Assembly (NCBI RefSeq): GCF_048403405.1
Contig: NZ_CP183129.1
Reading direction: 5' to 3' (one strand)
DNA from: Escherichia coli
GTDB lineage: Bacteria > Pseudomonadota > Gammaproteobacteria > Enterobacterales > Enterobacteriaceae
Length of the DNA stretch: 64,000 nt
Position numbers: made by a program. Positions within the stretch are counted from its first letter, which is position 1, and every line of letters starts with the position of its first letter. Shown in pieces: positions 33,001-48,000 of the stretch.

Positions 33001-36000
33001 CATTCCGTCTGGCACTAATCATCTGCGGTTGCGTCACCGCGGCGGGTGCACTGGCGTACATCTTCCTGGTTCGTCAGCCGATCAACGACCCGCGTAAAGA
33101 TTAATCTCCCTATGCCCGATAACATTTTGCTTATCGGGCATTTTTATGGCGATTAAAACGTTTCCCAGTTCTCCCCGCTATCTGCCACGGCCATTTTACG
33201 CGGCGCAGCTGGCGTCACGGTTTTTACCACAGCCGATGTTTCACGCTGCTGTTGCTGCTGTTGCTGAATCCGGAACACTGCCACAGCTTCGGTCAGGCGA
33301 CTGGCCTGCTCTTCCAGCGCGGCAGCGGCGGCGGCAGATTCTTCCACCAGTGCGGCGTTCTGTTGAGTTACCCGGTCCATCTCAGCAACCGCTAATCCAA
33401 CCTGATCGATACCACGGCTCTGCTCATCAGAAGCAGAAGCAATTTCGCCCATAATGTCCGTCACGCGGGTCACGGCACTGACAATCTCCGCCATTGTTTC
33501 CCCTGCGCTTTCGACCAGCGTAGAGCCAACATCCACTTTCCCCACCGAGTCTTCAATCAGGCTTTTAATTTCACGAGCCGCCTGGGCGCTGCGCTGGGCC
33601 AGATTACGCACTTCTCCCGCGACCACCGCAAAACCGCGCCCTTGCTCACCCGCACGCGCAGCCTCAACCGCCGCGTTCAAAGCCAGAATATTGGTCTGGA
33701 AGGCAATGCCGTCAATTACGCTGATAATATCGGCGATTTTCTGCGAACTGGTGGAGATATCGCGCATAGTCTGCACCACGTTATCTACCACTTTGCCGCC
33801 GCGTTGCGCCGTTTCAGAAGCACTTAACGCCAGATGGCTGGCCTGACGCGCATTCTCGGCGTTCTGTTTCACCGTTGCGGTCAGTTGCTCCATGCTGGCT
33901 GCCGTCTCTTCCAGCGAAGCGGCCTGTTGCTCGGTGCGCGAAGAGAGATCGTTATTGCCGGTGGCGATTTCGCTGGCACCGCTATAAATGGCATTGGCCC
34001 CGTTGCGCACATCACCGACGGTACGCATCAGCTCTCCCTGCATATGGCGCAAACTCTCTGCCAGTTGCCCCATCTCATTAGAGCCATCCACCTCAATCGG
34101 TTTCACCAGATCGCCGCCTGCAATATGACGAATGCTGTCAATCAGGCGATTCATTGGCGCTACCAACGAGGCTTTAATACCGAACCAGACGGCGAAGATG
34201 ACCGCCAGTACGACGATCATCACGCCCACCAGGATCCACATCGCCTGGCTGTAGGAGGCATTATTATCGCTGACGGCGATATCATAGAGCCGATCGTTTT
34301 GCTCCATGTAAGCCACATACTGCTTCTCGAAACCGTCCTGATATCCCTGGGTCGGCTGATCAAAGAACTCGTTGATTTTGCCTGCACCTAACAGTTGGAT
34401 CAGCTCCGCCAGCGCATTGTGATAAATATCGTAATTACGTTTGATCTCTGCCGCTGCGGCGGTGCTCTGACGCGGGTCACGCGGCAACGCTTCGTAATCC
34501 GCCCAGTTTTTTTCCGCCTGTTTCAGCGAAATACTGGCACTCTGCATCAGCTCAGCAACGGTTGAACCGCTACCAATATTATTCTGATCCATCATGTAGC
34601 GGATACCCGCGCGGTTGAGGGTGTTACGCGTCTGCAACAACGCGACCCAGCTGCCATTCAGCGTGGATTGCTGCTGGCGAATGGTTTGTAAAACAGTGAA
34701 ATTTTCTTTGTCATTCTTTAAGGCATTAAAGAACAGACCGCCTGATGTCAGTTGTAAAAGGCCAAAAACGGCCAAAACCAGCAGTAAGCTGGTCACAATT
34801 TTGATACGTTTTAACATGTTTTCTCTTTCCTGTGGACCGATGCAAGATTTTCGGCCTGGAAAGGAAAAACTTTATGAAAAGGTGTAACCCGCCATCCATG
34901 GAAAAACCAGGCGCTGGTTATCAGATATTAAAAAGTTATTCATTATCGCCCGGGATGTCTTCTTGTCGGGAATTACCCAGAGCAATAAATTCCTCTAACA
35001 GATGGGTTAACTGTTGCATTTTCTCGGCAGTAAACTGAGCTTCAATCTGCCGATAGGCCTCTTCAATCTGTGTCTGAGCGCGGTTATACAGCGCCTGCCC
35101 CTCTTTGGTCAGCGAGATATAGAGCTTCCGCTGATCATTGATCGGCTTTAATCGCAACACTAAACCGTCGCGTTCCATCCGCGTAAGGATCCCGGTCAGG
35201 CTTGGGCGCAAAATGCAGGCGCGATACGCCAGATCGTGAAAATCCATTGATGGGCTTTCCGCCAGAATACGCACGATGCGCCACTGTTGCTCAGTCAAAT
35301 TATGCCGTTTAACGATTGGGCGAAAATAACTCATCGCCGCTTCTCGCGCCTGGAGCAACGCAATGGTTAGAGAGTCGTGCATTATCTTTCCCCTGAAAAA
35401 TTCAAAATCATTAATATAGAAACAGTTAATCATCACGTTACCGGGACTGCGCTGCCCCTGCAATTCTTCATTTTATCAAAATTGAGCATGTTTTGTTAAC
35501 TTGCTGATATTTAATATTTTATTATCTTTAAATGTAAATAGTTTGTTAATTAGATCACATTTACATCACTTACTTTTGCCAAACTACGCAATCGGGAATA
35601 AAAGTAATCATTAACATATTAATGATTAAGATGATCGAATCCGAGGAGTGGTAATGAAAGGCACTATCTTCGCCGTAGCGTTGAACCATCGCAGCCAGCT
35701 TGATGCATGGCAGGAAGCGTTCCAGCAATCCCCCTACAAAACCCCGCCTAAAACTGCGGTCTGGTTTATTAAACCGCGCAATACGGTGATTGGTTGCGGT
35801 GAACCGATTCCCTTTCCACAGGGTGAAAAAGTACTGAGCGGTGCGACTGTTGCGCTGATTGTGGGGAAAACGGCGACGAAAGTACGTGAAGAAGATGCGG
35901 CAGAGTACATCGCCGGATATGCGCTGGCTAACGACGTCAGCCTGCCGGAAGAGAGCTTTTACCGCCCGGCAATCAAAGCAAAATGTCGTGATGGATTCTG

Positions 36001-45000: not shown

Positions 45001-48000
45001 CAACACCTTCTGGGCATTGAGTGACTCGATGTGTTCAGAAGCGACACCATGGGTCAACGGTGCTTATTTACCGGATCATGCCGCACTGCAAACCTATCGC
45101 GTACTGGCACCAATGGCCTACGCGAAGATCAAAAACATTATCGAACGCAACGTTACCAGTGGCCTGATCTATCTCCCTTCCAGTGCCCGTGACCTGAACA
45201 ATCCGCAGATCGACCAGTATCTGGCGAAGTATGTGCGCGGTTCGAATGGTATGGATCACGTCCAGCGCATCAAGATCCTCAAACTGATGTGGGATGCCAT
45301 TGGCAGCGAGTTTGGTGGTCGTCACGAGCTGTATGAAATCAACTACTCCGGTAGCCAGGATGAGATTCGCCTGCAGTGTCTGCGCCAGGCACAAAGCTCC
45401 GGCAATATGGACAAGATGATGGCGATGGTTGATCGCTGCCTGTCGGAATACGACCAGAACGGCTGGACTGTGCCGCACCTGCACAACAACGACGATATCA
45501 ACATGCTGGATAAGCTGCTGAAATAACGCAGCAGGAGGTTAAGATGCAATTAGATGAACAACGCCTGCGCTTTCGTGACGCGATGGCCAGCCTGTCGGCA
45601 GCGGTAAATATTATCACCACCGAGGGCGACGCCGGACAATGCGGGATTACGGCAACGGCCGTCTGCTCGGTCACGGATACACCACCATCGCTGATGGTGT
45701 GCATTAACGCCAACAGTGCGATGAACCCGGTTTTTCAGGGCAACGGCAAGTTGTGCGTCAACGTCCTCAACCATGAGCAGGAACTGATGGCACGCCACTT
45801 CGCGGGCATGACGGGCATGGCGATGGAAGAGCGTTTTAGCCTCTCATGCTGGCAAAAAGGTCCGCTGGCGCAGCCGGTGCTGAAAGGTTCGCTGGCCAGT
45901 CTTGAAGGTGAGATCCGCGATGTGCAGGCAATTGGCACACATCTGGTGTATCTGGTGGAGATTAAAAACATCATCCTCAGTGCAGAAGGTCACGGACTTA
46001 TCTACTTTAAACGCCGTTTCCATCCGGTGATGCTGGAAATGGAAGCTGCGATTTAAGCTCCAGCCCCTTCACGCATTCGTCGAAGGGGCATTTTTATTGT
46101 GATCTCAATCACATATCCACCCGATGAATAATTCTTGCCCAACCGCTCACCGCCATTCCTGACCGCTTACGTCCCTAAAATAACCACTCAGTTATTTACC
46201 TTACTTTACGCGCGCGTAACTCTGGCAACATCACTGCAGGATAGCGGTCAATTTACCTCCTCAAACGCAACGCAAACCTAGAACGGCTTCGGCCTATGAT
46301 TAACAAATTACTCTATGGATTTTGGTTTGCAGGAAGGCAGCAAGTGAGTGAATCCCCGGGAGCTTACAACAGTAAGTGACAGGGGTGAACGAACGCAGCT
46401 GCCGCACCTGTAAGCCAAAAGACGACGAGTAAAATGCCAGGTTTTACTATGGATACGAAAAAACTATTCAAGCACATACCCTGGGTGATTCTCGGAATCA
46501 TCGGTGCATTCTGCCTCGCGGTAGTTGCATTACGTCGGGGGGAGCACGTCAGCGCCCTGTGGATCGTGGTCGCCTCTGTGTCGGTGTATCTGGTGGCGTA
46601 TCGCTACTACAGTCTGTACATCGCCCAGAAGGTGATGAAACTCGACCCCACGCGCGCGACGCCTGCGGTTATTAACAACGACGGTCTGAACTACGTTCCG
46701 ACCAACCGTTACGTGTTGTTTGGTCACCACTTCGCCGCTATCGCCGGTGCTGGTCCGCTGGTCGGTCCGGTTCTCGCCGCACAGATGGGCTACCTGCCTG
46801 GCACGCTGTGGCTGCTGGCGGGGGTAGTGCTGGCCGGTGCGGTACAGGACTTTATGGTGCTGTTTATCTCCTCTCGCCGTAACGGCGCATCTCTCGGTGA
46901 GATGATCAAAGAAGAGATGGGACCAGTACCGGGGACTATCGCGCTGTTTGGCTGTTTCTTAATCATGATCATCATCCTCGCCGTTCTGGCGCTGATTGTG
47001 GTTAAAGCCCTGGCCGAAAGTCCGTGGGGTGTCTTCACCGTTTGCTCAACCGTACCAATTGCGCTGTTTATGGGTATCTACATGCGCTTTATCCGTCCGG
47101 GGCGTGTGGGTGAAGTCTCTGTCATTGGTATCGTGCTGCTGGTTGCCTCTATCTACTTCGGTGGCGTGATTGCTCACGATCCGTACTGGGGTCCGGCACT
47201 GACCTTTAAAGACACCACCATTACCTTCGCGCTGATTGGCTATGCGTTTGTTTCCGCGCTGCTGCCGGTGTGGCTGATCCTCGCACCACGCGACTATCTG
47301 GCAACCTTCCTGAAAATCGGCGTTATCGTCGGCCTGGCGCTGGGTATCGTGGTGCTGAACCCGGAACTGAAAATGCCTGCGATGACCCAGTACATTGACG
47401 GTACTGGCCCGCTGTGGAAAGGCGCTCTGTTCCCGTTCCTGTTCATCACCATCGCCTGTGGTGCGGTATCTGGCTTCCACGCACTGATCTCTTCCGGTAC
47501 GACGCCGAAACTGCTGGCTAACGAAACCGACGCGCGTTTCATTGGCTACGGCGCAATGCTGATGGAGTCCTTCGTGGCGATTATGGCGCTGGTTGCTGCG
47601 TCCATCATCGAACCGGGTCTTTACTTCGCGATGAACACCCCGCCTGCTGGCCTTGGCATCACCATGCCTAACCTGCATGAAATGGGTGGCGAGAACGCGC
47701 CGATCATCATGGCGCAGCTGAAAGACGTTACCGCACACGCGGCAGCGACCGTCAGCTCCTGGGGCTTCGTGATTTCGCCAGAGCAGATCCTGCAAACCGC
47801 GAAAGACATTGGTGAGCCTTCTGTCCTGAACCGTGCAGGTGGTGCGCCGACGCTGGCGGTAGGTATCGCTCACGTGTTCCACAAAGTGCTGCCGATGGCT
47901 GACATGGGCTTCTGGTATCACTTCGGTATTCTGTTCGAAGCCCTGTTCATCCTGACCGCGCTGGATGCGGGTACTCGTTCTGGCCGCTTTATGCTGCAAG

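Follow-up and report, generated by a model that had tools for sequence, protein, structure and literature searches.

How did the junction between the serine chemoreceptor gene tsr and the pyruvate/H+ symporter gene btsT (yjiY) come to hold an aromatic-catabolic gene cluster in some strains of Escherichia coli and not in others? The question is raised by a 64,000-nucleotide stretch of E. coli DNA (NCBI RefSeq assembly GCF_048403405.1, contig NZ_CP183129.1), hereafter the window, in which the hpa genes for 3- and 4-hydroxyphenylacetate (3-HPA and 4-HPA) lie between tsr and btsT. The two flanking genes are adjacent in K-12, as the original prediction for this DNA had said, and the MG1655 spacer between them is 377 bp. 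We favor the reading, with a probability of roughly 0.93, that window positions 34879-46096 are the canonical E. coli hpa cluster, vertically inherited, and that its absence from K-12 and from about 57% of complete E. coli genomes reflects a derived loss or replacement. The cluster at tsr-btsT is itself an already known, ordinary accessory catabolic locus, because its eleven genes, its operons (hpaBC, hpaGEDFHI, hpaR, hpaA and hpaX) and its absence from K-12 have been published (PMC7201708; PMC3032704). The cluster of E. coli W ATCC 11105/9637 is attributed in those two papers to Prieto, Diaz and Garcia (1996, J Bacteriol 178:111), and accounts of the cluster, its gene order, its regulation, its position next to tsr, its absence from K-12 and, in W, its nearness to pac/pga date back to the 1990s. 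What is added here is of modest value: the recognition of the tsr-btsT spacer as a site with three states, the cross-genus synteny that marks K-12 as the derived form, and a quantified distribution of hpa and of hpa with pga.

The open reading frames (ORFs) called in the window were checked against the RefSeq annotation of E. coli strain 4621, a 100% identical genome, and their coordinates coincide with it. All eleven Hpa proteins are full length and score above the curated cut-off of their own NCBIfam equivalog model, and none of the eleven ORFs has an internal stop. With model, score in bits and cut-off in brackets, the left flanking core gene is tsr (33153-34817, minus strand; RefSeq; NF011615, 1225 against 947), followed by hpaR, the MarR-family repressor of the meta-cleavage operon (34936-35382, minus strand; TIGR02337, 201 against 121). 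The meta-cleavage operon itself is on the plus strand and comprises hpaG, a bifunctional isomerase/decarboxylase (35654-36943; NF011750, 974 against 811); hpaE, 5-carboxymethyl-2-hydroxymuconate (CHM) semialdehyde dehydrogenase (36940-38406; TIGR02299, 739 against 638); hpaD, 3,4-dihydroxyphenylacetate 2,3-dioxygenase (38408-39259; TIGR02298, 550 against 316); hpaF, CHM isomerase, in an allele other than that of W (39269-39649; NF011605, 263 against 215); hpaH, 2-oxo-hept-4-ene-1,7-dioate hydratase (39717-40520; TIGR02312, 464 against 352); and hpaI, 4-hydroxy-2-oxoheptanedioate aldolase (40531-41319; TIGR02311, 434 against 369). Also on the plus strand are hpaX, a 4-hydroxyphenylacetate permease of the MFS class (41437-42813; TIGR02332, 894 against 615); hpaA, the AraC/XylS-family activator of hpaBC (42823-43713; TIGR02297, 390 against 275); hpaB, the oxygenase component of 4-HPA 3-monooxygenase (43964-45526; TIGR02310, 1110 against 885); and hpaC, its flavin reductase component (45544-46056; NF012030, 386 against 315). 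The gap between hpaB and hpaC is 17 bp, so that the two-component monooxygenase pair adjoins. The right flanking core gene is btsT (46449-48599, plus strand), named from the RefSeq annotation; its top NCBIfam match is the model of the paralogue CstA, with a score under the cut-off. The identities, number and order of the eleven predicted genes, hpaR, hpaGEDFHI, hpaX, hpaA and hpaBC, were thus upheld by ORF calls, RefSeq and NCBIfam, and their place between tsr and btsT by the annotation.

In E. coli W (NC_017635) the order is yjiR, yjiS, pga, yjiA, yjiX, btsT, hpaCB, hpaA, hpaX, hpaIHFDEG, hpaR, tsr and lgoT. Alignment to W and K-12, which had been named beforehand as the test of the prediction, returned the gene order and position of W and no different order or insertion site. 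W has the same eleven genes in the same order, strands, operon layout and tsr-btsT (yjiY) position: hpaG, E, D, F, H and I are on one strand, with all six proteins above their equivalog cut-offs, hpaR is divergent from hpaG, and hpaA is downstream of hpaX and upstream of hpaBC. Nucleotide identity to W is 97.0-99.3% per gene with zero to three amino acid changes (hpaF excepted), and the HpaR, HpaE, HpaD, HpaA, HpaB, HpaC and BtsT proteins are identical. The regulatory spacers of W are 97-98% identical to those of the window, and the hpaC-btsT spacer, including its terminator and the enterobacterial repetitive intergenic consensus (ERIC) element described below, agrees at 389 of 392 positions. 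Near-identity to W across the locus and its flanks was not found: identity is about 97.6% over 41 kb (41,197 aligned columns), compared with 100% over the 13.5-kb region in six other genomes. At these positions W has no counterpart to the initial 17 kb of the window or to the part beyond 61.0 kb.

The wider distribution of the arrangement indicates which state is ancestral. Species-representative genomes were scanned with HpaF, 80 loci, all from Enterobacterales, were kept, and the flanks were identified by tblastn with the window proteins; the counts per genus include only those loci with enough flank to judge. The tsr gene is directly to the left of hpaR in Enterobacter (5/9), Leclercia (2/3), Lelliottia (1/1), Citrobacter (1/5) and a divergent Escherichia (1/1), and btsT is to the right of hpaC in Enterobacter (7/7), Raoultella (4/4), Klebsiella (3/4), Citrobacter (2/3), Pseudocitrobacter (2/2), Lelliottia (1/1) and Pseudenterobacter (1/1). 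The tsr-hpa-btsT arrangement is common to Enterobacter, Lelliottia, Leclercia, Citrobacter and the divergent Escherichia. The clusters of Enterobacter, Lelliottia, Leclercia, Citrobacter, Klebsiella and Raoultella have the same order from hpaR to hpaC and share one or both flanks with the window; the proteins of these clusters are 70-98% identical to those of the window, and the spacers can be aligned in short stretches only. Within E. coli, the hpa genes differ from those of W by 1-3%, similar to the flanking core genes, and the GC content of the cluster (54.4%) is unremarkable beside that of the right flank (54.6%). No integrase, transposase or insertion sequence (IS) is annotated within the cluster, and a search for terminal direct or inverted repeats found no shared word longer than 7-8 nt at the two boundaries, a length also reached in shuffled sequence. 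Because of the cross-genus synteny, the flank-like divergence, the lack of mobility genes and terminal repeats, and the GC content, we regard tsr-hpa-btsT as ancestral and the K-12 form as derived. Loss of the hpa cluster by K-12 has been proposed earlier (PMC7201708).

How common each state is was determined in 5426 complete E. coli genomes, a genome being counted as hpa-positive if at least 80% of the 13.5-kb query matched in one place. By this measure 2068 genomes (38%) are hpa-positive, and tsr and btsT lie within 1.4 kb of each other, as in the K-12 or O157 type, in 3117. The pga gene, annotated as penicillin G acylase, is present in 1074 genomes, and 1071 (20%) have a contiguous block from hpaB to pga, so that hpa accompanies pga in nearly all cases, and pga accompanies hpa in about half. 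In a survey of avian isolates, hpaB was found in phylogroups A, B1 and C and not in B2 or G (PMC12444784).

The boundaries of the variable segment are precise. On the left, homology to K-12 and O157:H7 stops at 34875-34878, 1-4 bp upstream of a candidate tsr promoter (34848-34874, minus strand) that matches TAAAGTTT-N11-GCCGAAAA, which we take to be the sigma-28 consensus, with one substitution. On the right, the btsT promoter region contains a perfect CRP-consensus palindrome, TGTGATCTCAATCACA, at 46098-46113 that is conserved in K-12 and O157:H7 and forms the right boundary. Strong K-12 homology restarts at about 46140, and at 46142-46169 (plus strand), upstream of btsT, there is a direct repeat, ACCGCTCA-N12-ACCGCTTA, presumably of the BtsR/YehT type, that is present in K-12 too. 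Because the CRP palindrome is conserved in K-12, the variable segment ends at 46096; alignment to K-12 gives 34879-46096, and the predicted end coordinate of 46096 proved exact. As judged from these alignments, the limits of the variable segment are the outer edges of the putative tsr sigma-28 promoter and of the predicted btsT CRP site.

Two other occupants are found between these limits. The K-12 counterpart of the cluster is 88-133 bp of private, AT-rich sequence. Local alignment of the 133-bp form of this filler to 34879-46140 recovered the CRP palindrome only, with a score of 28 where shuffled sequences had a mean of 23 and a maximum of 30, and similarity between the K-12 filler and the O157 sequence was not significant. 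We considered the filler as a deletion scar made of the cluster ends and found no support for it, the local alignment being within shuffle range. The K-12 state is better described as a replacement than as a clean empty site, because its 88-133 bp are private and unlike the cluster. In O157:H7 a third state is found, about 780 bp of 35% GC flanked by the same pair of breakpoints (34875 and 46097 in window coordinates); in the Balcarce_14.2 genome this cargo occupies positions 1702-2477 of our locus L006, equivalent to 34876-46096 in the window. It carries a 180-amino acid hypothetical ORF, WP_000934391.1, for which NCBIfam and PADLOC gave no convincing family, the weak PADLOC match (E = 9e-4) being to an orphan methyltransferase model. 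On this comparison the tsr-btsT spacer is a three-state site, with hpa, the K-12 filler or the O157-type ORF bounded by the predicted flanking promoters.

The original prediction implied an insertion into a K-12-like junction, and this was not borne out. An island that W-like strains acquired horizontally at a tsr-btsT junction of ancestral, K-12-like form would account for the 3117 of 5426 genomes in which tsr and btsT are within 1.4 kb and the cluster is absent, for the sharp and reproducible breakpoints, for the repetitive extragenic palindromic (REP) and ERIC repeats inside or beside the cluster, and for the unrelated AT-rich cargo at the same site in O157:H7. The meta-cleavage operons of Pseudocitrobacter and E. 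coli are also more alike than expected, suggesting exchange of hpa DNA between genera. We nevertheless think an insertion quite unlikely, since the same flanking genes accompany the cluster in at least seven other genera, the divergence from W is that of the flanking core genes, the GC content is not atypical, and the K-12 site with its 88-133 bp of private sequence is not clean. A mobile island in particular was rejected for the lack of mobility genes, of terminal repeats above chance and of a GC anomaly. Several points weigh against vertical inheritance followed by loss or replacement. E. albertii, E. fergusonii and E. marmotae are not among the 80 loci kept, and consequently the ancestral state at the level of Escherichia is drawn from distant genera and one divergent Escherichia. 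The hpa genes of Salmonella and Kluyvera are located elsewhere. The K-12 filler has no recognizable remnant of the cluster ends, and a simple deletion cannot be shown from the sequence. We infer hpa function from the intact orthologues and from Arg379 of HpaB, and HpaF is assumed to be active, its allele being 84% identical in amino acids to the characterized and crystallized form.

A further reading is that the cluster is present but decaying and no longer functional, a fate that accessory catabolic loci can meet. The highly divergent hpaF allele and REP spacers that are rearranged relative to W could be taken as signs of decay. Yet the eleven ORFs are full length without internal stops, the proteins other than HpaF differ from those of W by zero to three residues, every Hpa protein exceeds its equivalog cut-off, and the hpaF allele of the window is found in 1084 genomes and in a divergent Escherichia lineage and is therefore maintained; decay is accordingly very improbable. 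Even less credence can be given to the idea of an origin of the window in E. coli W, ATCC 11105 or a strain closely related to them, with hpa and pga as strain markers, which the sequence divergence has already refuted. From yjiR to tsr the genes are ordered as in W, pga has replaced the restriction locus of the immigration control region (ICR) in both, the same accession is shared by nine of the 16 proteins compared, and the nucleotide sequence of pga is 100% identical. Against these likenesses stand an identity of 97.6% over 41 kb while six other genomes match at 100%, an hpaF of the other allele, REP spacers shorter than those of W and, at positions where W has neither, a prfC prophage and a pentapeptide-repeat gene. 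The block of hpa and pga also occurs in 1071 genomes, with pga at least 99% identical in 1056 of the 1074 that have it. The prediction of a W/ATCC 11105-like background thus stands as to layout, hpa and pga being arranged as in W, and fails as a diagnosis: hpa with pga does not discriminate for W, because 1071 of the 5426 complete genomes have this layout, and the 97.6% identity, the non-W hpaF and the smaller number of REPs point away from it.

The function of the cluster can be outlined by orthology from what has been established for E. coli W and C. As predicted from its gene content, 34879-46096 would encode a complete homoprotocatechuate pathway for 3- and 4-hydroxyphenylacetate. HpaX would import 4-HPA, and HpaA (AraC family), with its effector bound, would switch on hpaBC. 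HpaB with the flavin reductase HpaC would then hydroxylate 3- or 4-HPA to 3,4-dihydroxyphenylacetate, which would free the hpaGEDFHI promoter from the HpaR (MarR family) repressor. Ring cleavage by HpaD, followed by the action of HpaE, HpaF, HpaG, HpaH and HpaI, would yield pyruvate and succinic semialdehyde. A strong terminator closes hpaBC. Residue 379 of the window HpaB is arginine, and this residue has been reported to permit the use of 3-HPA besides 4-HPA (PMC7201708). With the intact orthologues and Arg379, the cluster would be expected to allow growth on both compounds and to be inducible by 4-HPA and homoprotocatechuate.

One gene in the cluster departs from the general similarity to W. 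The hpaF gene of the window is 80.6% identical to that of W in nucleotides (74 differences in 381 nt) and 84% in amino acids (20 of 126 residues differ), whereas hpaD and hpaH beside it are 97.0-97.5% identical. The divergent tract, of about 375 bp, starts about 30 nt into hpaF (around 39300) and ends in the REP spacer (around 39675). In 2071 hpa-positive genomes hpaF identity to the window is bimodal, with 1084 genomes of the window type at no less than 90% (at least 95% in every case except one), 987 of the W type at about 80%, and almost none between. HpaF matches PDB 1OTG over its full length (E = 1e-70); 1OTG is the CHM isomerase of E. coli C, whose hpc (homoprotocatechuate) genes encode the same pathway with orthologous enzymes, and it has the W-type residue at nearly all positions that differ between the alleles. 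Both forms retain the N-terminal MPHFIVEC motif, including the N-terminal proline, and 106 of 126 residues.

The two alleles have different relatives. The window-type hpaF is 96% identical in a divergent Escherichia lineage (L079), whose neighboring genes are 94-96% identical, and the W-type hpaF has 93% nucleotide identity to that of Pseudocitrobacter. In Pseudocitrobacter (P. vendiensis, L029, and P. faecalis, L032) the genes from hpaG to hpaI have 87-96% nucleotide identity to E. coli; tsr, hpaR, hpaA and hpaC are 79-82% identical (tsr about 79%) and btsT 86%. These identities suggest that the hpaGEDFHI block has been exchanged between genera. Because of the L079 and Pseudocitrobacter identities, we regard both hpaF alleles as old, and hpa DNA has probably moved between genera. 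It is conceivable, although we think it doubtful, that the dimorphism is a maintained polymorphism and not the neutral relic of one old import. In that case the REP or bacterial interspersed mosaic element (BIME) would act as a recombination boundary, and the two forms of CHM isomerase might differ in activity or substrate range. We found no description of the dimorphism in the searchable literature, which does not prove that there is none; it is a small population-genetic curiosity.

The regulatory spacers of the cluster are largely those of W. The divergent hpaR/hpaG regulatory spacer (35383-35653, 271 bp) agrees with W at 262 of 271 positions and contains a CRP-like site at 35544-35559 (pattern match with one substitution); promoter-like hexamers are present in it, yet not above chance expectation. 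The hpaA-hpaB regulatory spacer (43714-43963, 250 bp) agrees at 245 of 250 positions, with a weak CRP-like site at 43809-43824 (two substitutions). A short hairpin with a T-run at about 34900-34920 was considered as an hpaR terminator and discarded, its folding being no better than that of shuffled sequences (z = -0.47).

REP elements had been predicted in two spacers, hpaF-hpaH and hpaI-hpaX, and a pattern scan with a shuffle control confirmed both. The 67-bp hpaF-hpaH spacer has a single REP (39664-39697, minus strand), and the 117-bp hpaI-hpaX spacer has a half REP, a REP-like sequence at about 41324-41346 (plus strand), and a full REP at 41358-41391 (minus strand). The full elements at 39664-39697 and 41358-41391 match what we take to be the REP consensus, a pattern with no matches in 20 shuffles of the window. 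In W the hpaF-hpaH spacer is 110 bp with two REPs, and the hpaI-hpaX spacer is 174 bp with two scanned REP matches and a third REP-like copy visible. The spacer elements fit the consensus of the REP/BIME families, whose members are extragenic imperfect palindromes of about 35 bp, and their copy number in the hpa spacers of the window is below that of W.

The intrinsic terminator predicted after hpaC was likewise found, at 46063-46095 on the plus strand, as a hairpin (46063-46089) followed by TTTTT (46091-46095). The hairpin folds at -18 kcal/mol (z = -4.97), and none of 200 shuffles was equally stable. A consensus scan for promoters and terminators gave sites that were not above shuffle level and missed the hpaC terminator, probably because its loop exceeds the 8-nt limit of the scan.

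The btsT leader contains an ERIC element, also called an intergenic repeat unit (IRU), at 46308-46432 (plus strand), a 123-bp insertion relative to K-12 that sits between the CRP and BtsR-type sites and the btsT start codon. The ERIC1R and ERIC2 primer sites, in the sequences that we take to be theirs, are matched at 20 of 22 and 19 of 22 positions and lie back to back at 46348-46391. With both primer sites and the typical long hairpin (-61.7 kcal/mol, z = -7.0), the element fits the ERIC (IRU) family, whose extragenic members are about 125 bp long with a conserved central inverted repeat. The REP copy number aside, nothing unusual was seen in the repeat elements. The ERIC element is present in the window and in W and absent from K-12 and O157:H7. 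The element is found in the btsT leader of 2061 genomes, near the hpa-positive total, and further ERIC copies, 85-89% identical, occur at other loci.

On the other side of btsT, pga (49897-52437, minus strand) encodes a protein of 846 amino acids that RefSeq annotates as penicillin G acylase, under the same protein accession as in W; its identity is taken from that annotation and accession, since NCBIfam gave no family at E ≤ 1e-20. Between yjiA and yjiS it takes the place of the hsd/mrr/mcrBC restriction region, an arrangement shared with W; that pac has supplanted the restriction (immigration control) region in W is published (PMC3032704; PMC7201708). Over about 3 kb the pga region has 100% identity to W, against a difference of 1-2% in its flanks, a pattern that suggests a recent spread of pga within E. 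coli. Farther along, in the yjiS-yjiR-rpn region, 53000-53199 and 54600-54999 are 12-22% different from W, and there is a REP-like match at 54660-54693.

The ends of the window differ from W in content. A lambdoid prophage arm, integrated at the 5' end of prfC, occupies positions 1 to about 17050, with genes for lysis, an antiterminator, DUF968, KilA-N, RusA and repressor-like proteins, yfdPQRS, and an integrase at about 15603-16826; of prfC, about 70 bp are left, adjoining yjjG. TUM1226 and YDC107 carry the arm at 100% identity, and W and strain 4621 have no such arm at this site. At the other end, an ORF of 688 amino acids with a C-terminal pentapeptide-repeat region lies at 61382-63448 between a ytiA-like gene and yjiK. 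Its NCBIfam matches, of the HetL, Qnr and PipB types, are all under cut-off, and PADLOC gave no matches; in W, ytiA is directly followed by yjiK, and the alignment of the window to W ends at 61043. Finally, three tandem tRNA-Leu(CAG) genes are present at 20064-20385, and the near-identical TUM1226 is annotated with a single copy, so that the number of these tRNA genes varies among close relatives.

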